In this document: one piece after another, positions 2,785-46,218 of the stretch
Position numbering within the stretch: position 1 is the stretch's first letter
Layout of the letters: each line of letters begins with the position of its first letter
IMG/VR virus record: IMGVR_UViG_3300034152_000556
Span: 44,709 to 108,708 of that record
Strand: one strand, 5' to 3'
DNA: 64,000 bases
Source of the DNA: a virus
Notes under the pieces: generated by a model
Seen by the model: only the letters and a program-made list of their open reading frames with translations
Databases searched by the model: none
Told to the model about the DNA's origin: nothing
Position numbers and translations under genes: made by a program

Positions 2785-3027
2785 TTACTCTCCCTCACTG
2801 AAAAATTCATACATCTTTTTTGCTAACATAGCCAAATGTTCTTTGACTCTATTTGATATGATTCTGTCTAAGTCTGGCATTAGTTCATTAACAACATCTC
2901 TAATTTCATCTTGTGTTAGTTGTATTTCATTCTTCTTTATCGTTTCTTGAATCAGACTCGATAGATTCTCCTCTAGCATTTGTGCTAGAGTTTGCATTCT
3001 CTCGTCTTTCTCGTTCTTGTTCTGCAT
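2785..3027 (-). CDS. Hypothetical helical protein
   Basis: ORF abutting beta' gene; no recognisable motif; start uncertain. Confidence 0.55.
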   Translation of the reverse strand: MQNKNEKDERMQTLAQMLEENLSSLIQETIKKNEIQLTQDEIRDVVNELMPDLDRIISNRVKEHLAMLAKKMYEFFSEGE

Positions 3028-3232
3028 CCCGTAAACCTTTCATGATTTTGTATTTAATTTCTGTTATCTTGTAATCCCAAGCTGCTGCTATAGCAGTTGC
3101 AACTTTTTCAACAACCTTATTTAGTAACTTAGAGCCACTTTCTCGTATCAGCTGATCTATTTCTTCTACTCCCTCCTCCACTGCTTCTTCAAGTGTTTTC
3201 TTTTTTGGTTCTTGTTTGTCTTCCATACTCAC
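2927..3232 (-). CDS. Hypothetical protein
   Basis: RBS-like GGAG upstream; overlaps next ORF by about 100 nt. Confidence 0.45.
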   Translation of the reverse strand: MSMEDKQEPKKKTLEEAVEEGVEEIDQLIRESGSKLLNKVVEKVATAIAAAWDYKITEIKYKIMKGLRDAEQERERRENANSSTNARGESIESDSRNDKEE

Positions 3233-23384: not shown

Positions 23385-23556
23385 CGTCTCCTCCGCCTTT
23401 TTCATTTTCTTCGTACCGGTAATATTCCGGTAACACTACTAGGCTCCAAAACACTAAAAAAATGCTTATTCCAAGCATTATCCACGAACTCCATTTGCCA
23501 GCAAAGGGTATCATAATCCCTGAAATGACTAATAACACTTTCTGTTCTTTTTTCAT
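23368..23556 (-). CDS. Small two-helix membrane protein
   Basis: MKKEQKVLLVISGIMIPF...WIMLGISIFLVFWSLVVL; fills the gap between neighbours. Confidence 0.5.
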   Translation of the reverse strand: MKKEQKVLLVISGIMIPFAGKWSSWIMLGISIFLVFWSLVVLPEYYRYEENEKGGGDDGKNI

Positions 23557-24818
23557 ACATGTACAACATACCCTGTTTTGTTTACCATATCTGCTGAGCC
23601 AGAGACGACCCAAATGATTTTCTTGGGCATCTTTTTTCTGGGGTGTGCATTGATGTCTTCGCAACCACCATCCGTGAAGAATAAGGTTACATCAGGGTTG
23701 CCTTTTTTAGATTCTTCAAGCGCTGGAAAAAGCACGGTTCCACCACCGCCTTTCGGCTTGAAGTTGATGTCTTTAACTTTCTTACAGTCATAAACATTAT
23801 TAACTTCTGCATCACATTCAATTACTCGTGTTTTTGTGTAACGATCTTTCTCGATAATATGTTTTATACCAGACAGACCTTCACGAACTTCTTCTGGTGT
23901 CATACTACCAGATGTATCAATACACACATCAATTTTGAATGTGAAGTCTCTAGATTTACCGGGAAATGGTGAAATGAGCGGTAAGTTTTCAATCGGTGTA
24001 CATGTGAAAGCATACATTCTTTTACGATTGATTCTTACGTGTGCTCTTTTCCATTTTGCATATCTTGTTCCTTTTACAAGCTTTTTTATCAATTGATAGT
24101 ATGGCACTTTCGGCGGCCCGAGTGCTTCCTCAATCAATCTTGCAATATGAGCTGGTAAGTTACCTCGGTCTTTATTGAATCTTTTGACAGACTCTTTAAC
24201 AAGAGATTTGATGTGGCTGTCAACCTTTCTTGCTAAAGAACTGGTGTCTGAAACACCAGCTGTATTTTTCCAGCCTTCGTGACTATCAAAACCACCATCT
24301 AAAGGTATTGGAACTTTCTTTGCTTTTTTCAGAAGTTCCCAATAATACCATTCTGTCACTTTTTCCGGTGGTAGCTCATATTGTTCTGGAAGTTGTGGGG
24401 GCCATTCTTTACCATTTATCATTAATGGGTTCTTTAATCCTATTTGTTGATTCACGGCGCAATCAGCGGCAATGTTAAATATGTCAATACGACTTTGTGT
24501 TTCTAGAGGGTGTCTACCTATAGATTCGTTTGCAATGATTCTTATACATCTTGGCAAATGCTTATTAAGCAAATGCATACCTTCATGCTCGATTACTTTA
24601 ATGAGATTGTTATCATCAGTTCCCGCCACCAATGTTGGTTCGTAACATAATGTGATAGACCCATCAGAAGGTTCTACTTGAACACCCATAATTGATTTGT
24701 AGCCGGGAACCGCTCTACGTCTTACTTGGGAGAATAAGTACCCCCAATAATTGTATTTCAACACAAATCGAGCAACGAGCTTTTTTATTCTTTCTGGGTC
24801 ATGCAGTGGCGTTATCAT
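23553..24818 (-). CDS. Putative metallopeptidase with C-terminal vWA domain (DUF2201-like)
   Basis: HEGMH (HExxH), NIAADCAVN, vWA MIDAS DTSGS, GGGGT, FFTDG. Confidence 0.85.
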   Translation of the reverse strand: MITPLHDPERIKKLVARFVLKYNYWGYLFSQVRRRAVPGYKSIMGVQVEPSDGSITLCYEPTLVAGTDDNNLIKVIEHEGMHLLNKHLPRCIRIIANESIGRHPLETQSRIDIFNIAADCAVNQQIGLKNPLMINGKEWPPQLPEQYELPPEKVTEWYYWELLKKAKKVPIPLDGGFDSHEGWKNTAGVSDTSSLARKVDSHIKSLVKESVKRFNKDRGNLPAHIARLIEEALGPPKVPYYQLIKKLVKGTRYAKWKRAHVRINRKRMYAFTCTPIENLPLISPFPGKSRDFTFKIDVCIDTSGSMTPEEVREGLSGIKHIIEKDRYTKTRVIECDAEVNNVYDCKKVKDINFKPKGGGGTVLFPALEESKKGNPDVTLFFTDGGCEDINAHPRKKMPKKIIWVVSGSADMVNKTGYVVHV

Positions 24819-26047
24819 CTATTTCTTCCTACAGCAACAAGTGGCTCATAGAACAATTTTTTCCACTTGTCAGATTTCTTCATCATGATAACGTGAATGT
24901 CAGTCATATACTTGAACTCTTCTGATGTTCGTGAGTATCCATCGATCATGGTCACGAACAAGGCCGTTGTATCAACAGGCATCATCAGCATAAAGTCTTC
25001 AATGTTTTTAAGATGACGATCTTCATATTTTGGTCTGGAAGTCAACATGAACATTGTAAACCCTGTCATCAGCTGAGCTACTCTGTCCATTTCTTTCGCT
25101 TTCAGAATTGCTTCGATCTTTGGTTTGACCTCATCAAATTTATAGAACACATCTTTTGGATTGATGTCTTTTTTATCTTTTGCGAATGAGATAAACATTC
25201 TTGTCATATGAGTGTTGATGAGACCAGCAGCGATTGTTTCAATGTCGTCAAAATGATTTTCAACACCGCCATTCGCTTCGAATTTTTTCAAATGATCAGA
25301 CAGCTTTTCATAACTGGCTGGGTTGGCAAATACAGAACCAACTCGTTGAGCATCGAAGTCATAGATATATTCTGGGTGTGTTTGAATAAACTCAACAACA
25401 AATGGGTGAAAGTTTTGCTCTACGGCATACTTTAAGAAGTCTAGAGCACTCACTTCAGTAAAGATATGCAAATGACGACGAAGACCAGCAGCGTCTTCCA
25501 TTGTATCCATCTGATACTCTGCATCATCTGGATTGTCAGTTGATACAACAAACCAACCTTCAGGAAATGCATAGTTGTGAACGGCATATTCATTCTGAAC
25601 TTGCCAAAGCAATTGCTGAAGATTGTGATCTGCTCTTGAAAATTCGTCAATGACAAAGAGACCATACTTTGAATCTCTTCGGGGTACAAAGTCCGAATAG
25701 AGCATATTGAATCGACCTGTCATTTGAAACTTATCGGTTAGAACTGGGTAAGGTGTTAGAAAATCATCTCTGGATAGAACCGGACCTTTGATCATGATCA
25801 TTTCAAATGGCAATTTTAACTCTTCTGCAAGTTCAGCCGTTAGTTGCCCACATATTTGTGTTTTACCAACACCAGCAGGTCCGATGATGTGGAAAGCCTG
25901 TCGCTGCACAGGAATTCGCTTTTGCCAAGCATTAATCGTATTTCGGAAGTCTGTTTTGATTAACTCTTTAATCTTTCCTATTGAAAGTGTGGGTATGTCA
26001 AGTCTTTCATGGTATTTTAATTCTTCTTGTTTTGTTCCTTCGGTCAT
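24815..26047 (-). CDS. MoxR-like AAA+ ATPase
   Basis: GPAGVGKT, VIDEFSR, NP, DAAGLRR; paired with vWA peptidase; start set at MTEGTK after RBS. Confidence 0.8.
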   Translation of the reverse strand: MTEGTKQEELKYHERLDIPTLSIGKIKELIKTDFRNTINAWQKRIPVQRQAFHIIGPAGVGKTQICGQLTAELAEELKLPFEMIMIKGPVLSRDDFLTPYPVLTDKFQMTGRFNMLYSDFVPRRDSKYGLFVIDEFSRADHNLQQLLWQVQNEYAVHNYAFPEGWFVVSTDNPDDAEYQMDTMEDAAGLRRHLHIFTEVSALDFLKYAVEQNFHPFVVEFIQTHPEYIYDFDAQRVGSVFANPASYEKLSDHLKKFEANGGVENHFDDIETIAAGLINTHMTRMFISFAKDKKDINPKDVFYKFDEVKPKIEAILKAKEMDRVAQLMTGFTMFMLTSRPKYEDRHLKNIEDFMLMMPVDTTALFVTMIDGYSRTSEEFKYMTDIHVIMMKKSDKWKKLFYEPLVAVGRNR

Positions 26048-26072
26048 TGAAACTCTCCTGGTAAATTGGTTG

Positions 26073-26097
26073 AGGCTCGGGTTTCCCACCCGAGCCT
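26073..26097 (-). other. GC-rich hairpin 3' of the SSB-like gene
   Basis: aggctcggg...cccgagcct perfect 9-bp inverted repeat; no strong U-tract. Confidence 0.5.
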
Positions 26098-26123
26098 TTC
26101 CGATTACGAGAACATCTTTAACA

Positions 26124-27089
26124 TTAGTCAAAACTTACGTCATCAAAACTGAAAGGTTTCGATTCGGGTTTTTGTGCAGGAGGCTCTTTCTTTGCTTCTT
26201 GTTGTGGTTCTGGATCGTCTTTCTTTTTCATATCGCTACCGTCTGCTGGTAGCATACCTTCTGTTCTTTTATCATCTCCGTAACCGCTTGTTGCTTGTTT
26301 TCTTTGAGACCAATCGAATTTTTCATTGAATTTGGAAAGAGTCTTTTTAGAAACTTGAAGAACATCTTTCACGAAGTCTGTACTTAACTCATTTCCCCTT
26401 GTCATAATGAAAACTTTCTTTGGTCCGAATTGTGAGCCTTCTTCACCAATTGTTATATTTGTAACAAATCTCTTGTTATTTACAACTTTCTTTTCAAACT
26501 CAAGGGATTGTTCTGTGGGTGGTGTGAATATTGGATCTAACTCAAGTCGATACATCTCACCAAGATAATCAGACACATTTTTATATTTCATGCCTTTTCC
26601 ACGAATAAATACAAAGAGTGGTTTTCTTTCTTCGGTGAGGATGGGGTTACCGGCTTTGTCACAATAAATACCAGCAACCAGCAAGTGATTACGACAGGGA
26701 GAACAGAAATCGTTTGCTGCACGTTCTACGGAGTTTGCGGGGCATTCTCTTTGTTTGCCACTATCCAGTTTTGTTGTTCCGTAGAATGGGGGCGAACCGG
26801 CCTTGTAAGAAAAGCATTCGATGCTCTCTCTCTGTCCTTTTGCTGCTGGTTTGACTTTTACATTGACATCTTTAACGTGAATAATGATCATATTCACTTG
26901 TTGAAGATTGTACTCGACGCCACGAATCTGAAGGTTTCCAGCTTGCTCTTGTACGCCAGCCTGATTTGTTCGTGTTATACCAGCAATATAGACGCTGTGA
27001 AAAAACTCATCTTCTGGTGACATCGGTTCTGGTGCTGAGTGGCTGGTCTGTGCAAGATCAGCATACTCATCAAGGTTAAAATCATTCAT
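26124..27089 (-). CDS. Putative single-stranded DNA-binding protein
   Basis: Flexible C-terminus ending in acidic/aromatic FSFDDVSFD; internal Cys/His cluster; inferred only. Confidence 0.45.
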   Translation of the reverse strand: MNDFNLDEYADLAQTSHSAPEPMSPEDEFFHSVYIAGITRTNQAGVQEQAGNLQIRGVEYNLQQVNMIIIHVKDVNVKVKPAAKGQRESIECFSYKAGSPPFYGTTKLDSGKQRECPANSVERAANDFCSPCRNHLLVAGIYCDKAGNPILTEERKPLFVFIRGKGMKYKNVSDYLGEMYRLELDPIFTPPTEQSLEFEKKVVNNKRFVTNITIGEEGSQFGPKKVFIMTRGNELSTDFVKDVLQVSKKTLSKFNEKFDWSQRKQATSGYGDDKRTEGMLPADGSDMKKKDDPEPQQEAKKEPPAQKPESKPFSFDDVSFD

Positions 27090-28247: not shown

Positions 28248-29213
28248 TTACAGAACAATTGACATATAGACAGGTTCACCGTCTTGTTCGATGAGGTCAC
28301 CGCCCCCACCAGGAGTCTTAATCATCTTGACCGACACATTTCCATCTCTGTCAAGCTGGCTTACGTTGCTGACATCGATAGAGTTAAGCATTGGCAAGAT
28401 GCTTTCTTGAACCGTAGTTGAGAAGTCTTCAAGAATTTCTTTGACCTCTTCTGGTGTAGCGTCTGATGGAATGCTCGGAAGCACCAGAGCAGACTCTTGT
28501 AGACGACCCGATTTCTTCAAACGAATCATCTCAGCACCATAACAACCACGAATCAATAGTTGCCAATAACGCTGCCAATGCTCTTGCGATGGCATGATCT
28601 CCAAACCAACCGGTACGCCGCCGAACATAATCAGCGCACCAATCTGGCCCGGTACTGGCTCGAATTCAGCCGCAAACTCTTCAAGAGCTTCACGAATTTC
28701 TGGTCTGTCGTAGAAGTCACGTAGGTGTCCACGCGCACGACCACGAAAACCTGGAATTGAACCGATCCAGCGTGTGATACGATCCCAAAGCTTGCCATAG
28801 TCACTCTTTTGACGGAATTGACGATTCAGAAAAGCCTTTCTCAGTTCAACCGGTAGGATATCGTACTCGTTATCCTCACCTCTCAGATAGCCACCCTGAG
28901 ACGCTTCGATACAACATGCATTGTCGAAACGTTTGGTTTTCTTTGCTGAAACAACACCGCTTCCGCTCATAGCATGGTCTTGTGCGCCTTTTCCACGCAC
29001 CATGATGTTTGTAGGGATAATGGCAGGACGCTCAGGATCTTCGTTCTTGAACTCCATCGTACCGTAGTTTGTCGTTCTTTCGAACTTCAAAGAGGATGGC
29101 GATGCTACATTACCCCTCGCATCACCAACAATCGGTACAACAGTCATCTCGTTGACGATCTGAGCTTCGCCAACACCGATGTTATTGAATCTGAATTTCT
29201 CGAAGATTTTCAT
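28248..29213 (-). CDS. ARPP (DUF6569/ARPP-1 or ARPP-2)-like protein
   Basis: Recognised pattern Q...MTVVP...N....PAII....GAQDH...CIE..Q...LW..I...F.PVPGQIGA....G...GLE..P....W..L...Y; not database-verified. Confidence 0.55.
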   Translation of the reverse strand: MKIFEKFRFNNIGVGEAQIVNEMTVVPIVGDARGNVASPSSLKFERTTNYGTMEFKNEDPERPAIIPTNIMVRGKGAQDHAMSGSGVVSAKKTKRFDNACCIEASQGGYLRGEDNEYDILPVELRKAFLNRQFRQKSDYGKLWDRITRWIGSIPGFRGRARGHLRDFYDRPEIREALEEFAAEFEPVPGQIGALIMFGGVPVGLEIMPSQEHWQRYWQLLIRGCYGAEMIRLKKSGRLQESALVLPSIPSDATPEEVKEILEDFSTTVQESILPMLNSIDVSNVSQLDRDGNVSVKMIKTPGGGGDLIEQDGEPVYMSIVL

Positions 29214-29217
29214 AAGT

Positions 29218-30756
29218 TTATCCTCCTATAAGCTTTCGATATTTACTGACCAAAAGTTTTCTGACCATACCTGTATTTTCAATCATACGATTGAAGATCA
29301 GCTCGGTCTCCAAGTACTTGTAGTTTTCGACAGGCATTGGGTCTACACCTTCAGCCAGCTTTCTGCCAGTTCCCTTTTTCGCATCAGCGGAAAACACAGG
29401 GTTAATATGGAGAAGTTCAAACTCGTACCCTGTGTCTTGGAAATGTTGATAAGCTTTGTCAAACATTCCCTTTACGGCGTTTTCGTAACCGTCTGAAAAT
29501 ACGACGATCTTTTTGGCTCCTGTTAGAACAGCGTCTACCAAGCCTCTCCATAGAGGTGAACCACCAGCAGGGTAAACCACTTGATGTGACCCTTCTTTAA
29601 TCACCGCTCCACCAACATAGATTATGTCTTTCACGTTATCCAATGTTGATATAATTGAAAGCGATGTCAAAAATGGGTGCAGTGGTCTTTCCTTACTACC
29701 TTGCATCGAGTGCGAAGCATCGAGAATACATACACATTCACCAATGTCGATCTTATCGATCTTTGCACCTTGCTTGTCGATTGCATCAGAGACTTTGTCG
29801 AGGTCTTTCTTTCCACCGTTTGCAATCTGATGGTAGAAGTACTTCCACAAATCGTACAAGTCCTGTTTTTCATAATCGACTTTCACTTTGGCTCCGGCCT
29901 TCTTGCTTGCTGTTTGCATTTGCAGCTTTTCACGATCACTCATTTTTGATTTTTCGTATACATCTTTCAAAGGTATGTTCACTTTGTAAAGGTTACGAAA
30001 ACCAACAACGGTTCTCATAGGCATACCCTTCATAAGGGTTCGAAATGCATCGACATCGTTGGCGATTGCTGCCTGTTTAAGCTTTTGGTATTGATCTATT
30101 TTTGGATAGTGGTAGGTGATATCACTAGCAACCGTATCCACGCCAAACAGATGCCACATGACAGGCTGTGCGCCACTTTGATAACGACCGATGTACTTTC
30201 TGAACAAGGCTTCGTCTCCATTCAGAACTTTGAACAGTGTTTGTTTGCCAAGGGCATGTCTCACGAGACGTTTCATTTTACCCTTGTAGTTCACTGCCAG
30301 TGCATCGGTTTCTTTTGGCGGACGGTTGAAAATGTACTCAAGAATCAACTTACGTGTACGAGCGTTGTTGACTCTCTTTGCGTTTGAGTCCGCACCAGCC
30401 AGAATCAGAAGGTTTTTCATAGCGTCTGGCACTTTTTCTTTGGCAAGATTGTGGTAGATGACCCTGCGTTCAAAATCAGAATCGAGCAGTGTGTCTTCAA
30501 CAACCAAATCTTTACCGGAACCCGTTGGCGCAGGGTTCGACAAGAGCATATGTGTCATCATACCCTTGCTGAATCGCGTTCCGTTCAACAGCATGGTCAG
30601 AGCGAACAGCACACGGTCATACTGAAACAACCCGTTCCACATCTCAAAAACACGATTGAATTGCGCGTCTTTTCCTTCGTAATAGGCTCCCTTCGGTACG
30701 TATTGAAGGATTCCACTGTCAATCTTTGTAACTGATTTTGTCACTGATTTCGCCAT
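29218..30756 (-). CDS. Ro60/TROVE-like protein: helical N-terminal region plus C-terminal vWA (MIDAS) domain
   Basis: vWA MIDAS DASHS...SDG clearly present. About 340-aa basic, helical-looking N-terminal region; 512-aa size and architecture match Ro60/Rsr. TROVE identity is inferred. Confidence 0.55.
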   Translation of the reverse strand: MAKSVTKSVTKIDSGILQYVPKGAYYEGKDAQFNRVFEMWNGLFQYDRVLFALTMLLNGTRFSKGMMTHMLLSNPAPTGSGKDLVVEDTLLDSDFERRVIYHNLAKEKVPDAMKNLLILAGADSNAKRVNNARTRKLILEYIFNRPPKETDALAVNYKGKMKRLVRHALGKQTLFKVLNGDEALFRKYIGRYQSGAQPVMWHLFGVDTVASDITYHYPKIDQYQKLKQAAIANDVDAFRTLMKGMPMRTVVGFRNLYKVNIPLKDVYEKSKMSDREKLQMQTASKKAGAKVKVDYEKQDLYDLWKYFYHQIANGGKKDLDKVSDAIDKQGAKIDKIDIGECVCILDASHSMQGSKERPLHPFLTSLSIISTLDNVKDIIYVGGAVIKEGSHQVVYPAGGSPLWRGLVDAVLTGAKKIVVFSDGYENAVKGMFDKAYQHFQDTGYEFELLHINPVFSADAKKGTGRKLAEGVDPMPVENYKYLETELIFNRMIENTGMVRKLLVSKYRKLIGG

Positions 30757-30835
30757 CTTACAATCCTCCTCTTAAAATTTCGACGTAGGACCCTGATAGC
30801 CAATTTTTTCGGATGAAACAAAAATTAGCCATTCA

Positions 30836-30917
30836 GTCTTAGTCGAGTGAATGGTGGTAGGTGTGGCTCATTGATTATTAGTAAATCTGAAGCCACACCA
30901 AGTCCATAAACTAAGAC
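30836..30917 (-). ncRNA. Array unit 6: carrier-helix RNA with short AU-rich insert
   Basis: GTCTTAGT..ATGG-ACTT-GGTGTGGCT-TCAG...AGCCACACC-TACCA-CCAT..ACTAAGAC. Confidence 0.6.
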
Positions 30918-31002
30918 GACATCAATTCGTGATAGAAGGTCGCGGAGACGCTTAGCGACTCCCCACCATCTTCACGGTCAACGCCGCCGTGCATACTGGT
31001 GT

Positions 31003-31093
31003 GGGGTGAGGTGAGTGTACCTCACAGGACGCCGTGCTAATCTAGCGTTGGCGCCCAGTGCAAACCTGAGCGGAAGATACACTCAGTCACCCC
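31003..31093 (-). ncRNA. Array unit 5: carrier-helix RNA with hairpin insert (possible UUG anticodon-like loop)
   Basis: GGGGTG-ACT-GAGTGTAT-CTTCCG...GTACACTC-ACCT-CACCCC; insert hairpin CGCTCAG-GTTTGCA-CTGGGCG. Confidence 0.55.
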
Positions 31094-31102
31094 GAGAAGT
31101 AA

Positions 31103-31229
31103 GCGAGAGTAGCAATGTAGCGTGTTGTGTTTGACCATCCCCCCGTAGGTGGGGGGAGTAGGACTCGAACCTACAGTGTCATGCTCCCAATGCATGTGTC
31201 TTTTCCTGAAACCACATTAAGTCTCTCGC
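31103..31229 (-). ncRNA. Array unit 4: carrier-helix RNA with tRNA-Pro(UGG)-like anticodon arm and T arm
   Basis: GCGAGAG-ACTT-AATGTGGT...CATGC-ATTGGGA-GCATG...GTAGG-TTCGAGT-CCTAC, extra hairpin TCCCCCC/GGGGGGA...GCTACATT-GCTA-CTCTCGC. Confidence 0.75.
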
Positions 31230-31271
31230 AAATTGTGAATACGGGGTGATCAGGCCCCGGGGCTTTAATAA

Positions 31272-31367
31272 GGGAGATAGAATATGTAGCTTGTGTGATA
31301 CTTGTACCTGTCAATGGTAGGTACGAGAGTTACAGTCTCGTTATCTGAAACTACATAAAGTTCTCCC
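31272..31367 (-). ncRNA. Array unit 3: carrier-helix RNA with tRNA-Tyr(GUA)-like anticodon stem-loop
   Basis: GGGAGA-ACTT-TATGTAGT...CGAGA-CTGTAAC-TCTCG...GCTACATA-TTCTA-TCTCCC. Confidence 0.7.
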
Positions 31368-31377
31368 GAAAAAACAA

Positions 31378-31481
31378 AGTGGAGTAGCAATGTACTAAGA
31401 TGGGACTTGAACCCACAACATACTGTTTATAAGACAGTTGCTCTACCAGTTGAGCTACGGAAAGCACATTTAGTCTCCACT
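31378..31481 (-). ncRNA. Array unit 2: carrier-helix RNA with tRNA-Ile(UAU)-like D, anticodon and T arms; no acceptor stem or CCA
   Basis: AGTGGAG-ACTA-AATGTGCT...TA-GCTC-AACTGGTA-GAGC-A-ACTGT-CTTATAA-ACAGT..GTGGG-TTCAAGT-CCCAT...AGTACATT-GCTA-CTCCACT. Confidence 0.8.
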
Positions 31482-31489
31482 GAAAAAAG

Positions 31490-31600
31490 AAAGGTAGTGA
31501 GAAATGTAGCTGTAAGGCGGATTTGAACCGCGTCTCTCCTTGGGCATAGGAGTGATGTACCAAACATCACTGAAACAGAAACTACATTAAGTCTACCTTT
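31490..31600 (-). ncRNA. Array unit 1: carrier-helix RNA with tRNA-Gly(GCC)-like D, anticodon and T arms; no acceptor stem or CCA
   Basis: AAAGGTAG-ACTT-AATGTAGT...GATG-TTTGGTA-CATC..CTCCT-ATGCCCA-AGGAG..GCGG-TTCAAAT-CCGC...GCTACATT-TCTCA-CTACCTTT. Confidence 0.75.
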
Positions 31601-31645
31601 ATAATTGTAAAAAATTAAGCGTCAGAAATTATTACTATTTGTAAT

Positions 31646-31660
31646 TAATATATATAGATG
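31646..31660 (-). promoter_or_regulatory. Candidate phage promoter motif CATCTATATATATTA (copy 1)
   Basis: Identical 15-mer at 46204-46218; lies about 45 nt upstream of the first RNA unit. Confidence 0.5.
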
Positions 31661-31676
31661 TGTGTTTTATAAATGA

Positions 31677-31934
31677 TTAGGTCAAATCGAGTTTGACAGG
31701 TGTTCGATAGTCATCTAGGTCCAATAATAGCTTTTTTCCCTCGTAGCTGTCAAGAGCATTTTTAATTAAATTTTTCGCACTAGATGGCATCATGGGGTCA
31801 GTCTTTAAAAGCTGAATCCCACCCTTGAAAGAAATCGAAACACCATCTGCTGTTTCACTTACATCAAGCATTTCTGATCTGTCAACAGTTAAATTAAAAC
31901 TGCCATTTTTTCTTGTAATCACTAAATCAGCCAT
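31677..31934 (-). CDS. Hypothetical protein
   Basis: ORF with RBS; no motif. Confidence 0.55.
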   Translation of the reverse strand: MADLVITRKNGSFNLTVDRSEMLDVSETADGVSISFKGGIQLLKTDPMMPSSAKNLIKNALDSYEGKKLLLDLDDYRTPVKLDLT

Positions 31935-34434: not shown

Positions 34435-37400
34435 TTATCTTGTTAACATAAGTGAAACAAAATATGAATTCAATAAATCTTTAGCTGGTGATATTTTTGC
34501 TTCACGATATTTTGCTGACCCTTTCTCGATGATTTCAGAAATGATTTCATCTCTTGTTATGTAATCATCGCTTAATGGCCCCATCATTTCAGCTAATGTG
34601 TTTACACAGTTGTATGAAATAAATGCATAAGTGTCAGCTTCACCGACTCTCTGACCTCCACCTCTTCTTTTTCCAGCTGTTGGTTGTGCGGTTTTACCAG
34701 CTGTTGGTCCTGTGCTTCTACCATAAATCTTGGATTCACCAAGATGTTCAAGTTTACCAATATACATATAACCAATTGGTATCTCTCTAAATGTTGTTGT
34801 ATTAAATTCAGGCAATCGAAGCTTATACCCTGTTTTTAAACCAACAACCGACAGAGCTTTCTTAATATCATTGTGGTTTGGTGCTTTAAAAGGTGGGATA
34901 ATAATAGGAAAAAACCCACTCTTCTTTGTTCTCTCAACGAACTCATTAAATTTCACCCCTGATAATTTTTCTATGTTTGCCAGCATAGATAGAGTCGTTT
35001 TTTTGTTCTTACTTTTATCGAGATACTGATAAACTTTTTTCAATAAATCAATGATTTTAGCTTTTGTTAAATTTGGTAACATTAAACCAAGCTGTCTTGC
35101 AATTAACCCACAGTACGTCTCGTATACTTGCCCCATGTTCATTCTACCAATAATTCCAAGTGGATTCATCACCATATCAAGGGTTCCGAACGGTGTTCGC
35201 GGCATCAAGTTGTCTTTCTCAAGTAGCGAAATAATACCTTTGTTACCATGACGATTACAAAGTTTATCACCAAGACCAATTCTTAGCTCTTGTTCAATTT
35301 TAAATTTGACCAGAACACCTTTTATGCTTTCGCCCATGATTTTAAATTTCTCTTTTGGTGGCTTATCATGTCTTTTATTGGTACGTTTGATTAGGCTTTC
35401 GATTTCTGGAAAAGTGTTTTCTGGCATATTGGAGAAAACCTCAATGTCAACAATTGTACCGCCAGGACTTTTCTTTATAAATTGACCAGATTGAATATCT
35501 GTATCATCGTCTTCTTCAAATCCAATGAGTTGTTCAATCTCACCAACAGTCTTCCTCAATAGTGGTTCACCCTTTTCTAGTTTGTCACCAATCTTTGCAA
35601 TAAAAACTAATCGATCATTTTCTGATATTAAAACCTCTTCTTCAATGCCGTGGAGTGATGTCAAACTATCACTTTCAACTAATCTCTCATTGATAACAAT
35701 GCCATCTTCAAAGTTATATCCCTTATATGGCATGAACCCAACTAACAAAGGTCTACCCAAAGCGATAGAACCAGATGCCATACACGCACCCTCTGCAACA
35801 ATATCACCTTTCTTTACAGATTGGCCGGTTTTAACAGTTGGTTTAAAAACACTCAGAGTGTTTTTTCCTGACCCTGATCTAAGATGCATGGGTGTTATAT
35901 CGACAACATCTTTCTTACCAGCAGCGCATTTCATTGTTATTTTATCAATAGTTATTTTATCAATCTTACCGGTGCAAGGTGCTCTTTTGATAAAGTTGTC
36001 TGAAAGAACGTTTGTCAAAATAGATTCATATCCAGATTGAACAACAGGGGGTTGTGGGTTTTTCAACGGAAGCATTTGTTTTGCTTGATTTGTTATCATA
36101 ATAACACGAGCACCATCATTGTTTTCAAGAAATGGTGTCATAACAGAACTGGTTGATAACATACCAGTACCCTCATCGTCACTTATTTTTTTAGCTTGAA
36201 ACATACCACGAGATGATGTGATCAATGCATCAACCGTAAGCTGTTGCACAATACCAATATTGCCGCTTTCAGGTGTGTCTAATGGGTCAATATTTCCAAA
36301 GTATGTATCATGTATATTACGACTTGCATTATCAATAGACCTCTTATCAGGTATGCCACCAACTTGCTTTCCAACGGGTGAGATTCTTGTGATCGATGAC
36401 ATCTCTTCAATCGGATTTGCATATTCCATGCTCATTGAAAGCTCGGTCATTTGAAAGTCTTTCATTACCTTGGTCGGTACAATTGCTAGCTGAGCTTCAT
36501 CATTTCCACCTAATATTTGCTCACGATATGTAGTATATGCTGCTAGAATTTGTTTCTGTGCTAAATGAACAAGAATTTCAGAGTTTCGTATTCTCTGATT
36601 TGTTAGATCGTTTCGAGGAATATAAGTTTTCTTAACAGCCTTATCAGCCATATAAAACATAATATCCTCAAGTTCTGTTGGTTGTTGTTTATTCAGAAGA
36701 ACCTGTCTTGCAACGGGGTCAACAATATTTTGAATCTTCAATTCAATTTGATATGTTGAATTAACACGCCCTGTATGTGCAATGATCAGGTTTTCAAAAT
36801 ATTGCTTCGATGGAAAGTCTCCTTCGATGTGATATTTATCTGGCGTACCATACTGAAAAGAATTAACAATGTATTCTTTTAATTCAGTATTGACATTGTC
36901 AAAAATGACATACTCCTTTCCTCTAATTCTTGCCCAATGCTTTTCACCTTTTGGTCTCTCTGTTGCCATACGATATTTTATACCGTATTTTTTCAATGAT
37001 TGTTCAAAACCAAATGCGAAAAACACCAGAAATGAAAATGGCATTTTATATGTCATGAAAGAATCAAGAAAAGTAACCTTTCTTAGACTCTTAACATTAA
37101 ATCTGAAAGTTGAATATGAACTTTCAAATCTAGCTTCTCCTGGTTTTGGAAATGTAATTGGGTTGCGTATGATCTGATTGATCAAAACCTTTTTCTGACC
37201 GTTAATTCTGAATGTTCCCGTATTTAAATCAATCTTTGGTATTTCAATAGCTACTTGTTGTAATTTTCCAAATTTATCTTTTAAAGTAACTGTTACAATG
37301 CTGATGTCAGATTTTAAGATTTCACCAGCTCTTTGTGGTTTATCACCAATAGATATTGAGTGAAATTTAAGTGGTGGGTCTCGTTTTTCTAAGACTTTAA

Positions 37401-38511
37401 ATGCGTTTGTCAGATCATTTCTGATGTTGGTTTCAAAATCAATTTTTCTTTTTTGAAAAATATGTTCTGGAGATTTATTACCAACCGCAGCTGTTGGATT
37501 ATAAACAGCAACACGCGGGTCTGTCGTAAGACTTATAGTTTTCTCAGGCTTTAATAACTCATCAGAAAAATTCTTACTGATAGCTTTTAGAGCTTTTGTT
37601 GAATTTTTGGACGTAATGCCTTTTGCAATATTTTTTGCACCATCAAGATCGCCGCTTACTCTATAAAGAATTGCTGTTGCGGTGATTTTTTCGATATCAC
37701 TTTTTGTTACATCTCCGCTTGCAACCTTGTTTCTTGTCTCTTCATCGTCTTCTAGAAAATCTGATACCGCACCCTTAACGGCCTCGTCGTTGTCAATATT
37801 TGCTTTAACTGAAGAAACAATTTTGCTACTTGACACTTGTGCTTCAGCTTCGATCTCATCTTCAGTATCCACAGTTTTTATGTTCCTGATATATTGAAGC
37901 ACTCTCCTAAAGGCATAATCCCCGTCTTTAACCATTAAACGATACTTTGCACCATCTGAAGATACTGTTGATAACAACATTGTTTCAAAGAAAAGGTCTT
38001 CTTCTTTTTTCATATCATGAATAATAGGAAACACTTTTCTGTTGATGAAAGTGTTTAAATCTTTCTCAATATCGACGGAATATACCAAAATTTTGTTATA
38101 TTCGTCTGGAAAAAACCTAAAAGCTGACTCCAACGCATTTTTAATCAAATAGCCAGCTCTTTGTCTATATGTTGTTGGTTTCATTCGAGCATCAACAGCT
38201 TGCACATAATTTGATACATCAAAGATTACGTTTCGACCAGTTGGTATTCTTTGTCTGCTTGTGTAAGCTGTTAGCTTATAAGCTTTATAGAGCTTTCTTA
38301 AATCTGATGTTAAAAGAGTGCGTGGTATTTTCGTAAAAGGCACAACAACAATTTGAAAGTCTGCTGGTCTCAAATTAAGCTTTGGTAGATCGTCAATAAG
38401 AGTCGAGTTTTCAGAAAAATAGATTAACGCCGTTGGATTCTTAGGGTCGCGTCGAAAAATCACACCATCAACTACATGTGTGTACTGTCTTAAATTTTTA
38501 AATGGTATCAT
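34435..38511 (-). CDS. rpoB: Multisubunit RNA polymerase beta-like subunit with about 340-aa N-terminal extension
   Basis: FRINGQKKV, DTPESGNIG, GYNFEDGIV, GDKLCNRHGNKG, NPLGIIGRMNMGQ, KLEH, GGQRVGE. Confidence 0.95.
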   Translation of the reverse strand: MIPFKNLRQYTHVVDGVIFRRDPKNPTALIYFSENSTLIDDLPKLNLRPADFQIVVVPFTKIPRTLLTSDLRKLYKAYKLTAYTSRQRIPTGRNVIFDVSNYVQAVDARMKPTTYRQRAGYLIKNALESAFRFFPDEYNKILVYSVDIEKDLNTFINRKVFPIIHDMKKEEDLFFETMLLSTVSSDGAKYRLMVKDGDYAFRRVLQYIRNIKTVDTEDEIEAEAQVSSSKIVSSVKANIDNDEAVKGAVSDFLEDDEETRNKVASGDVTKSDIEKITATAILYRVSGDLDGAKNIAKGITSKNSTKALKAISKNFSDELLKPEKTISLTTDPRVAVYNPTAAVGNKSPEHIFQKRKIDFETNIRNDLTNAFKVLEKRDPPLKFHSISIGDKPQRAGEILKSDISIVTVTLKDKFGKLQQVAIEIPKIDLNTGTFRINGQKKVLINQIIRNPITFPKPGEARFESSYSTFRFNVKSLRKVTFLDSFMTYKMPFSFLVFFAFGFEQSLKKYGIKYRMATERPKGEKHWARIRGKEYVIFDNVNTELKEYIVNSFQYGTPDKYHIEGDFPSKQYFENLIIAHTGRVNSTYQIELKIQNIVDPVARQVLLNKQQPTELEDIMFYMADKAVKKTYIPRNDLTNQRIRNSEILVHLAQKQILAAYTTYREQILGGNDEAQLAIVPTKVMKDFQMTELSMSMEYANPIEEMSSITRISPVGKQVGGIPDKRSIDNASRNIHDTYFGNIDPLDTPESGNIGIVQQLTVDALITSSRGMFQAKKISDDEGTGMLSTSSVMTPFLENNDGARVIMITNQAKQMLPLKNPQPPVVQSGYESILTNVLSDNFIKRAPCTGKIDKITIDKITMKCAAGKKDVVDITPMHLRSGSGKNTLSVFKPTVKTGQSVKKGDIVAEGACMASGSIALGRPLLVGFMPYKGYNFEDGIVINERLVESDSLTSLHGIEEEVLISENDRLVFIAKIGDKLEKGEPLLRKTVGEIEQLIGFEEDDDTDIQSGQFIKKSPGGTIVDIEVFSNMPENTFPEIESLIKRTNKRHDKPPKEKFKIMGESIKGVLVKFKIEQELRIGLGDKLCNRHGNKGIISLLEKDNLMPRTPFGTLDMVMNPLGIIGRMNMGQVYETYCGLIARQLGLMLPNLTKAKIIDLLKKVYQYLDKSKNKKTTLSMLANIEKLSGVKFNEFVERTKKSGFFPIIIPPFKAPNHNDIKKALSVVGLKTGYKLRLPEFNTTTFREIPIGYMYIGKLEHLGESKIYGRSTGPTAGKTAQPTAGKRRGGGQRVGEADTYAFISYNCVNTLAEMMGPLSDDYITRDEIISEIIEKGSAKYREAKISPAKDLLNSYFVSLMLTR

Positions 38512-46203: not shown

Positions 46204-46218
46204 TAATATATATAGATG
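46204..46218 (-). promoter_or_regulatory. Candidate phage promoter motif CATCTATATATATTA (copy 2)
   Basis: Identical to 31646-31660; about 48 nt upstream of the likely start of the 472-aa gene. Confidence 0.5.

Follow-up and report, generated by a model that had tools for sequence, protein, structure and literature searches.

Genomic setting and anatomy of the RNA array

The analysed DNA is a stretch of 64,000 nt (hereafter the window), corresponding to positions 44,709-108,708 of the 108.7-kb IMG/VR virus record IMGVR_UViG_3300034152_000556, the completeness of which is estimated at 35%. Its source is a jumbo phage that encodes a beta subunit (34435-38511) of a multisubunit RNA polymerase of its own, and the genes of the window lie almost all on the minus strand. 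The sequencing runs listed for this DNA are six DNA metagenomes, with no RNA run among them. The subject of this work is a tandem array of six structured RNA units at 30836-31600, located in a 920-bp gap between an open reading frame (ORF) of 85 aa (31677-31934) and an ORF of 512 aa (29218-30756), together with the Ro60-like protein that the second ORF encodes and its ARPP-1 domain neighbour (28248-29213).

An earlier note on this DNA had proposed six minus-strand units in the gap, and all of them were recovered between 30836 and 31600. Each unit, folded alone, forms a closing stem, an internal loop, a helix of 8-9 bp and an insert, as had been described, with z-scores of -3.0 to -6.2 against dinucleotide shuffles. 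The closing stem, loop and helix, with the linker UUCNG that leads to the insert, are referred to below as the handle. The six helix pairs quoted in the note were correct when read from the sequence, and its conserved loop ACU(U/A) holds in general, with the exception of unit 5, which has ACUG. The gap had also been considered free of any credible coding sequence; two mechanical ORFs of 52 aa (31037-31195) and 70 aa (31351-31563) are in fact present, and both traverse covarying helices. An ungapped 5' motif of 17-18 nt, (R)ACTNNRTGTRNYTTCNG, occurs in exactly six copies in the 64 kb, every one in the array, and allowing one mismatch gave seven matches in the window against 0.87 expected.

Two spacer hairpins (30918-31002 and 31230-31271) were not counted as units, their folds being weak (z -2.2 and -1.1, respectively). 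The 85-aa ORF directly upstream of the array (minus strand) has no Pfam or PHROG match. The related phage locus L002 has an ORF of 85 aa (2890-3147) in the same relative place; the two were left unaligned.

Covariation of the handle

A covariance model, R1, was built from 20 minimal units, of which 19 came from other phages and one was the core of unit 6. With filters off, it matched all six window units (E 6e-12 to 4e-3) and nothing else within 30500-31900. At E <= 0.001 the model recognised 49 units in 13 phage loci, all of them on the strand of the Ro60-like gene and just upstream of it. Unit length is 56-134 nt. The compensatory changes that the note had read from the six helices are borne out by these 49 phage units, aligned by fitting to R1: each of the 14 pairs has changes in both of its strands, the paired fraction of cells is 95.5% compared with 73.9% in shuffles, and the covariation score is 0.72 versus 0.28 for shuffled alignments and at most 0.16 with a slid partner. 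Likewise, RNAalifold applied to a plain MAFFT alignment regained both helices, with compensatory changes in 12 of 15 pairs. Covariation in closing stems that are free in sequence points to selection on RNA pairing. The handle consensus of the 49 units is G-ACU-(U/G)-[NNUGURRY]-UUCAGA ... [complement]-U.A.YUA-C, where G, ACU and UUC are invariant in 47-49 of the 49.

As R1 gave nothing convincing on bacterial loci, a second, bacterial covariance model (R2) was needed. It gathered 64 bacterial units from 29 loci, in which 15 of 16 pairs covary, with a covariation score of 0.66 versus 0.22 shuffled and at most 0.12 slid. At E <= 0.01 R2 matched neither the window nor the distant phage loci L016 and L017; because the two models do not cross-match, the phage and bacterial sets are joined by architecture and motif and not by one model. 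The bacterial helix contains a conserved C.C mismatch, owing to which most bacterial units escaped a strict ungapped descriptor. In the Pirellulaceae loci L018-L035 (e.g., L024 1298-1391), this mismatch lies between helix segments of 3 bp and 5 bp (CGUCA / UGAC-C); it recalls the bulged helix of the vertebrate Ro-binding site, whereas phage handles are without it.

Inserts and their relation to tRNA

ARAGORN found no tRNA genes in the window, and no window unit forms a complete cloverleaf with a 7-bp acceptor stem and free ends. The sole Rfam match in the window is tRNA (RF00005), which falls in the inserts. All units described here are on the minus strand. Unit 1 (31490-31600; fold z -4.07; R1 40.8 bits, E 8e-9) carries a tRNA-like insert consisting of a long D-like hairpin, an anticodon-like loop AUGCCCA and the T-arm GCGG-UUCAAAU-CCGC. 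In unit 2 (31378-31481; R1 16.5 bits, E 0.004), the handle takes the place of the acceptor stem on a near-canonical tRNA body with a D arm, an anticodon arm with the loop CUUAUAA and a T arm; the Rfam tRNA model scores 52.3 bits at 31399-31458, covering model positions 7-64 only, so that the acceptor stem is missing. When the array was compared with 50,697 phage records by blastn, the only matches were tRNA genes, aligned along some 60 nt of this unit. Unit 3 (31272-31367; fold z -3.74; R1 38 bits) bears two hairpins, one of which resembles an anticodon arm with its 5-bp stem and 7-nt loop CUGUAAC.

The handle of unit 4 (31103-31229; R1 25.2 bits) is set on the opened D-loop of a circularly permuted insert similar to tRNA-Pro(UGG). 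The Rfam tRNA match of 25.9 bits covers model positions 8-63 only, and the acceptor end is sealed (UCCCCCC-ACCUAC-GGGGGGA). When the insert was rotated in silico at the sealed acceptor and the 9-nt spacer was dropped, ARAGORN called tRNA-Pro(tgg), while it made no tRNA call for the insert unrotated or with the spacer retained. Rotation restores a canonical tRNA, as for a circularly permuted tRNA. Unit 5 (31003-31093; z -5.6; R1 31.1 bits), which has the ACUG variant and a lengthened helix, carries a long GC-rich hairpin. Unit 6 (30836-30917; z -6.15; R1 54 bits, E 6e-12) is a minimal unit with a mini-hairpin of 4 bp and 7 nt; the extent proposed for it stands, but its conserved core is 30849-30909, enclosed by an extra outer stem.

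In the relatives L006, L014, L010, L007, L008, L004 and L015, complete tRNAs are enclosed by the handle, often with an encoded ACCA end. Position +1 of the embedded tRNA is the conserved G of UUCNG (unit 1 of L015) or the N just preceding it (L006). Mini-hairpins form the insert of about two-thirds of units, some others have acceptor-less or sealed tRNA bodies, and T-loop-like hairpins are present in about one-third. Many units have no anticodon-like loop and carry UUCG tetraloops or AUUGGA loops instead. Some units from different loci have an anticodon-stem sequence in common and 7-nt loops that differ (L005 versus L006, L003 versus L014); such units are apparently orthologous, a judgement drawn from the stem sequence and not from an alignment or rate test. 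The inserts are of tRNA origin.

Several embedded complete tRNAs have unusual anticodons according to ARAGORN (L003 2707-2781, L006 2725-2800, L008 2720-2795, L009 2546-2618 and L010 2678-2751). These anticodons are UUA, which would read the UAA stop codon, and AUG, AAU, AUA and AUC, the last four with A at position 34. An A at this position is rare in bacterial tRNAs. In addition, position 33 of the embedded tRNA of L014 is A and not U.

The Ro60-like protein

The array ends 80 nt upstream of the gene for the 512-aa protein (29218-30756, minus strand). By sequence, this protein matched no Pfam family even at E 10 and no PDB entry, whether a single sequence or a profile was used, and the Pfam TROVE domain was detected in none of 10 distant family members. 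The AlphaFold (AF2) model has a pLDDT of 83. With Foldseek, its top structural matches were all Ro60/TROVE proteins, aligned over the full length with a probability of 1.0 and a TM of 0.43-0.53. In VIA, the top eight matches were likewise all Ro60, with Z of 13.2-15.3 and 392-417 aligned residues across residues 6-511; matches to the vWA part only reached about Z 10. The best structural matches are the Ro60 of Thermus phage phiLo (9kop) and those of Xenopus and human.

The predicted architecture is that of Ro60/TROVE proteins of about 500-540 aa, namely a helical-repeat ring region followed by a C-terminal vWA domain with the DxSxS MIDAS motif. Its residues D346, S348 and S350, as well as SDG at 421-423, are invariant in the alignment. 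The structural model thus identifies the 512-aa protein as a Ro60-like ring-plus-vWA protein that escapes sequence methods, the ring being predicted from the fold match. Homologues are numerous: hundreds of metagenomic sequences are 50-61% identical, 14 IMG/VR loci encode them, and a profile search returned 458 representative clusters (50% identity). Matches from Nostoc plasmids covered the vWA part only and were set aside.

A 13-bp hairpin (AUGGCUAAUUUUU...AAAAAUUGGCUAU; z -2.7) at 30757-30835 (minus strand) separates unit 6 from the strong ribosome-binding site that precedes the Ro60-like gene; it could be a processing or regulatory element.

The ARPP-1 partner

The gene immediately downstream (28248-29213, minus strand) encodes a protein of 321 aa with the ARPP-1 domain (Pfam PF20208, 88.4 bits against a curated cut-off of 27). 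The same gene follows the Ro60-like gene immediately in all 12 phage relatives with an ORF table and in all eight bacterial loci checked. PF20208 scored 99-132 bits in L016 and eight bacterial neighbours, and the Cys and Gln columns are invariant in the ARPP-1 alignment. Moreover, the metagenomic protein P0258 (884 aa) is a natural fusion of a Ro60-like part (residues 36-482) with ARPP-1 (565-823).

Complex prediction for the two window proteins gave an ipSAE of 0.64 compared with 0.12 for the best of three controls. Of 80 solved complexes, 58 reach this mark, as do 2 of 110 mismatched pairs (the counts hold only roughly, because custom alignments were used). Between runs at least 97% of contacts agree, with a partner pLDDT of 86 or more. 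In the predicted interface, the MIDAS face of the vWA domain (348-350, 397-444) contacts ARPP residues 16-21, 182-188 and 243-268. The prediction supports binding between the Ro60-like protein and ARPP-1.

About 2 kb downstream of ARPP-1, two further minus-strand genes encode a MoxR-like ATPase (phrog_1297; 24815-26131) and a DUF2201 VWA/metallopeptidase protein (23553-24818), and ORFs of similar sizes follow in L002. Given the vWA domain with MIDAS in the Ro60-like protein, both genes may belong to the same module. Downstream of ARPP-1 in L002 (6659-6775) there is also a hairpin of about 115 nt, probably no more than a long inverted repeat; its score of 50 bits with several models of plant miRNA precursors stays under the cut-offs of those models.

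Linkage of the RNAs and proteins in phages and bacteria

Every locus at >= 38% protein identity has two to six like units directly upstream on the same strand. Two large relatives span 248 kb and 223 kb, with a completeness of 79% and 71%, respectively. In both, every R1 match lies at the Ro60-like locus, and the 24-28 ordinary tRNAs lie in separate clusters without handles; the handle is therefore not a general tRNA-processing signal of the phage. A motif-first scan of IMG/VR gave 15 matches, among which structured handles were found solely on Ro60-like contigs. Eight of the 15 were rejected as unstructured chance matches with no complementary strand (17-21 bits), and the stretches fetched from those eight contigs contained no Ro60-like gene.

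The distant phages L016 (24% protein identity) and LR756500.1 (462 kb, 26%), the latter an uncultured huge phage and the only one found by tblastn of the Ro60-like protein, have the ACU-helix-UUC...YUA handle near the Ro60-like and ARPP-1 genes. The units of L016 alternate with ordinary tRNAs, and the unit of L017 is 1.5 kb away from the Ro60-like gene, with four ORFs intervening. In L016, the tRNA/handle array is separated from the Ro60-like gene by a gene for an HNH endonuclease (2307-2630).

A further 55 loci were found in bacterial and a few archaeal-labelled assemblies, chiefly of Planctomycetota, Myxococcota and Bacteroidota. The trio of handle RNAs, Ro60-like protein and ARPP-1 is usually at the end of tRNA gene arrays there, with 128 same-strand tRNA genes in 20 bacterial loci, mostly upstream. 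The motif ACT-N8-11-T[TA]CNG is present within 700 nt upstream of the gene in 37 of 47 bacterial loci, at a density of 2.5 per kb compared with 0.34 per kb elsewhere, and its sites fold into the handle architecture. The large relatives, the motif-first scan, the distant phages and the bacteria all show that the linkage between RNAs and protein exceeds shared synteny.

Comparison with described RNA families

The note had held that the handle differs from the canonical Y RNA helix and that it should be compared with the Y RNA and YrlA models of Rfam. No Rfam family, YrlA included, matches the handle. The best YrlA (RF02553) score was 17.6 bits (E 1.8) against a gathering cut-off of 69, in a match spanning parts of two units, and at gathering threshold the window and 32 related loci yielded neither YrlA nor Y_RNA. 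The known motifs GNCGAAN0-1G (bacteria), GGUCCGA (vertebrates) and CGAA (phiLo) are absent from all six units; the position of the Ro60-contact motif on the 5' strand is taken by another conserved motif, G-ACU...UUCNG. The features of the Y RNA class that the units do share are a gene adjoining that of a structural Ro60 homologue and ends that form a long stem with a conserved site, joined to a variable module. As the evidence at sequence level is negative throughout (the RF02553 score, the GNCGAA and GGUCCGA motifs and Pfam TROVE), the units are filed apart from YrlA. Readings of the handle as a kink-turn, a known ribozyme or a bulge-helix-bulge splicing element had no Rfam support and were rejected; tandem G.A pairs and 3-nt bulges are absent. 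No description of the handle, of the Ro60-like/ARPP pair or of handle-embedded tRNAs was found in the literature.

Transcription signals

A promoter-like phage motif, TCTATATATATTA, is located at 31646-31658 (minus strand), about 45 nt upstream of unit 1. It has two exact copies in the window, the other being at 46204-46216 (minus strand), and in L002 it precedes individual units (about 3165 and 3335). It is probably a promoter for a phage RNA polymerase. Scans for sigma-70 promoters and intrinsic terminators gave nothing above shuffled expectation. With one promoter-like motif, at 31646-31658, the array may form a single polycistronic precursor, as the note had suggested.

Interpretation

We propose, with a probability of roughly two in three, that the six units belong, as Y-RNA-like non-coding RNAs, to a diverged Ro60-type ribonucleoprotein and would bind its protein. 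The note had already compared the constant handle and variable payload with the logic of Y RNAs, and the comparison has gained support from the adjacent structural Ro60 homologue, the covariation of the handle and the occurrence of handles only at the Ro60-like locus. We infer transcription, processing, RNA-protein binding and biological role along the following lines. The array would probably be transcribed from the motif at 31646-31658, either along with the Ro60-like and ARPP-1 genes or shortly before them. In each unit, the 5' end would pair with the 3' end into the constant handle, comprising a closing stem of free sequence, an asymmetric loop (5' G-ACU-N; 3' ..YUA-C), a complementary helix of 8-9 bp, also free in sequence, and UUCNG. 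The Ro60-like ring, with ARPP-1 on its vWA/MIDAS face, would recognise the handle mainly through the conserved nucleotides of the 5' strand. The variable insert would thereby be displayed as a whole tRNA, an acceptor-less tRNA body, a permuted sealed tRNA or a bare anticodon-like hairpin, and could recruit tRNA-binding factors of host or phage to the particle, or take the place of tRNAs as a substrate or decoy. By analogy, such a display role would parallel that of the bacterial Y RNAs which tether Ro60 to PNPase.

Several points weigh against the assignment to a Ro60-type particle. TROVE is unrecognisable by sequence, even with a profile, and homology to Ro60 rests on a fold and an architecture that match at moderate TM values. 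The handle is without the known Ro60-binding motifs and without a match to the YrlA or Y_RNA models, and it might be read instead by ARPP-1 or a host RNase. The neighbourhood is wholly syntenic within the phage clade, so that those loci are not independent of one another and independence comes from the distant phages and bacteria only. Finally, alignments fitted to a covariance model, as that of the 49 units was, lean towards the modelled pairs.

In the main rival explanation, which we regard as unlikely, the handle would serve special tRNA transcripts as a cassette for their maturation or caging and would be no binding site for the Ro60-like protein: the insert would be the product, the pairing of leader and trailer would guide or postpone cleavage by RNase P, RNase III/E or 3' exonucleases, and the Ro60-like protein and ARPP-1 would act on the released tRNAs or be unrelated. 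The complete tRNAs held by the handles of relatives, often with an encoded ACCA, are what such a cassette would contain, and with position +1 at the G of UUCNG or the preceding N, RNase P would cut inside the conserved linker. Mycobacterium smegmatis YrlA is cut by RNase P and given CCA (PMC4201824), and the bacterial relatives lie at the ends of tRNA arrays. Most units, however, are unable to yield a tRNA, being mini-hairpins in about two-thirds of cases and otherwise including acceptor-less or sealed bodies, while the 24-28 ordinary tRNAs of the same phages do without handles. Single-stranded ACU and UUCAG, which are invariant across phyla, also exceed the needs of RNase III or RNase P, and the strict pairing with the Ro60-like protein and ARPP-1, the fused form included, would be left unexplained. 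Quite unlikely, in our estimation, is a role of the units as tRNA decoys or spare parts against host defences that target tRNA (e.g., anticodon nucleases), in which the handle would only stabilise them and bar them from translation, and the two proteins would form a repair or quality-control module for damaged tRNAs instead of binding the handle. It would account for the 5-bp stems and 7-nt loops of many sequences that resemble anticodon arms, and for common anticodon stems with differing loops (L005/L006, L003/L014); Ro60 systems have been tied to RNA repair operons and damaged tRNAs as well (PMC7790460, PMC7824862). On the other side, many units lack an anticodon-like loop, free-living bacteria carry the system beside tRNA arrays where it is not obviously counter-defence, and a decoy function is compatible with a Y-RNA-like particle rather than exclusive of it.

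With the promoter-like motif before it, the Ro60-like start codon after it on the same strand and the 13-bp hairpin just ahead of the ribosome-binding site, the array could also be a cis-acting 5' leader of the Ro60-like/ARPP-1 mRNA, for instance an autoregulatory mimic through which the protein would control its own synthesis, in place of a set of trans-acting RNAs. Two to at least six units with varied tRNA-type inserts far exceed what a leader needs, and the distance of the L017 unit with its four intervening ORFs, the interspersion of L016 units with ordinary tRNAs and the promoter-like motifs before individual units of L002 further make this very improbable, although control in cis is compatible with Y-RNA-like function. 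Least credible of all is that the repeats act as DNA, as a target for recombination or a homing endonuclease or as a promoter array, with incidental RNA structure. Conservation of an 18-nt motif on one strand, the HNH endonuclease gene of L016 and the homing endonucleases that accompany tRNA arrays (PMC8421152) are in its favour; it is strongly disfavoured by compensatory changes in 14 of 14 phage and 15 of 16 bacterial pairs with closing stems of free sequence, by G-U pairs that are tolerated only on the transcribed strand, and by tRNA-type inserts on that same strand.

A further scenario can be sketched, speculative and unlikely, in which the particle would be a new type of machine that handles tRNAs. 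The Ro60-like ring would cage spare or altered tRNAs and their mimics through the handle, and ARPP-1, predicted to act on ribose and docked on the MIDAS face, would modify or repair their ends or those of host tRNAs that mimicry recruits. Release, protection or repair of tRNAs would be available to phages and bacteria with tRNA arrays when the tRNA pool or translation is attacked, and the rapid change of the anticodon loops would reflect an arms race with nucleases that target tRNA.

Conservation of Ro60/Y-RNA particles extends from bacteria to humans, yet their roles in bacteria and phages are poorly understood. If the proposed particle exists, a large branch of Ro60 has been missed by sequence searches, amounting to the 458 clusters above. 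This branch would gain a defined RNA handle, a constant and enzymatic-looking partner in ARPP-1, which has so far been linked only to ADP-ribose systems, and a cargo with whole tRNAs at one extreme and minimal hairpins at the other; Y-like RNAs would have come to mimic tRNA in several topologies. The enigmatic horizontally transferred tRNA arrays would likewise gain a function-linked neighbour. A minimal 60-nt RNA and a two-protein complex would be open to direct testing, and the cultivable carriers Stieleria, Thalassoglobus, Rhodopirellula and Minicystis make the question experimentally tractable.

Comparison with known systems

Over 250 bacteria and phages encode Y RNAs beside Ro60 genes; these RNAs mimic tRNA, and their recognition relies mainly on the 5' strand (PMC4201824). 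Like YrlA/YrlB and Yrn1 with Rsr/Ro60 (Chen et al. 2014, PMC4201824), the window has RNAs in the range of 60-130 nt beside a Ro60-type gene, several per locus as is often the case for these known RNAs. Paired ends, a conserved motif on the 5' strand of the stem and a variable module that mimics tRNA (T arm, D arm, sealed acceptor) are further common features with the bacterial Y RNAs of that study, and the permuted order known from YrlA is present in unit 4 and in L015 (2819-2966). In contrast to YrlA, the handle motif is G-ACU...UUCNG and not GNCGAAN0-1G, and the handle usually joins at the acceptor side or D-loop and not at the anticodon stem. Unlike those of bacterial Y RNAs, the inserts can be bare hairpins or complete tRNAs with ACCA, the array has up to six units, and the protein, unlike Rsr/Ro60, is not detectable as TROVE by sequence and is always accompanied by ARPP-1.

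The closest phage counterpart is phiRo60 of Thermus phage phiLo with Yrl1/Yrl2 (PMC12135203; PDB 9KOP, 9L5Y), where a phage Ro60 ring with vWA binds two RNAs encoded immediately upstream of its gene. Its structure 9kop is the best structural match of the window protein, at a sequence identity of about 12-13%. The differences are that phiRo60 is a recognisable Ro60 homologue, its RNAs carry CGAA, they number two, and an ARPP partner is not reported (PMC12135203).

The bacterial relatives share with tRNA L-arrays a setting of densely packed tRNA genes on one strand, whose 3' end they occupy (128 tRNA hits in 20 loci), and the HNH neighbour in L016 resembles the homing endonuclease beside the Anabaena L-array (PMC8421152). 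The L-arrays are presented there as ordinary, aminoacylated tRNAs, whereas the window is without a complete tRNA. A term search of PMC8421152 gave no 'tRNA-like' RNA or conserved neighbouring gene, the terms 'Ro60' and 'ARPP' not having been searched for.

For ARPP (PF20208), in which Cys and Gln are conserved, an enzymatic action on ribose moieties has been proposed (Iyer, Burroughs, Anantharaman and Aravind 2022, PMC9503650). The window protein has the same Pfam domain as the ARPP of the ARG-centred ADP-ribose conflict systems described in that work, and the Cys and Gln columns are invariant here too. The neighbourhoods differ, however: ARG/phosphatases, HIRAN, WYL and deacetylase are found there, whereas here ARPP-1 is accompanied by a Ro60-like partner and RNA arrays, neither of which is listed in PMC9503650. 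The array and its two proteins look like an undescribed, widespread branch of the known Ro60/Y-RNA particles.

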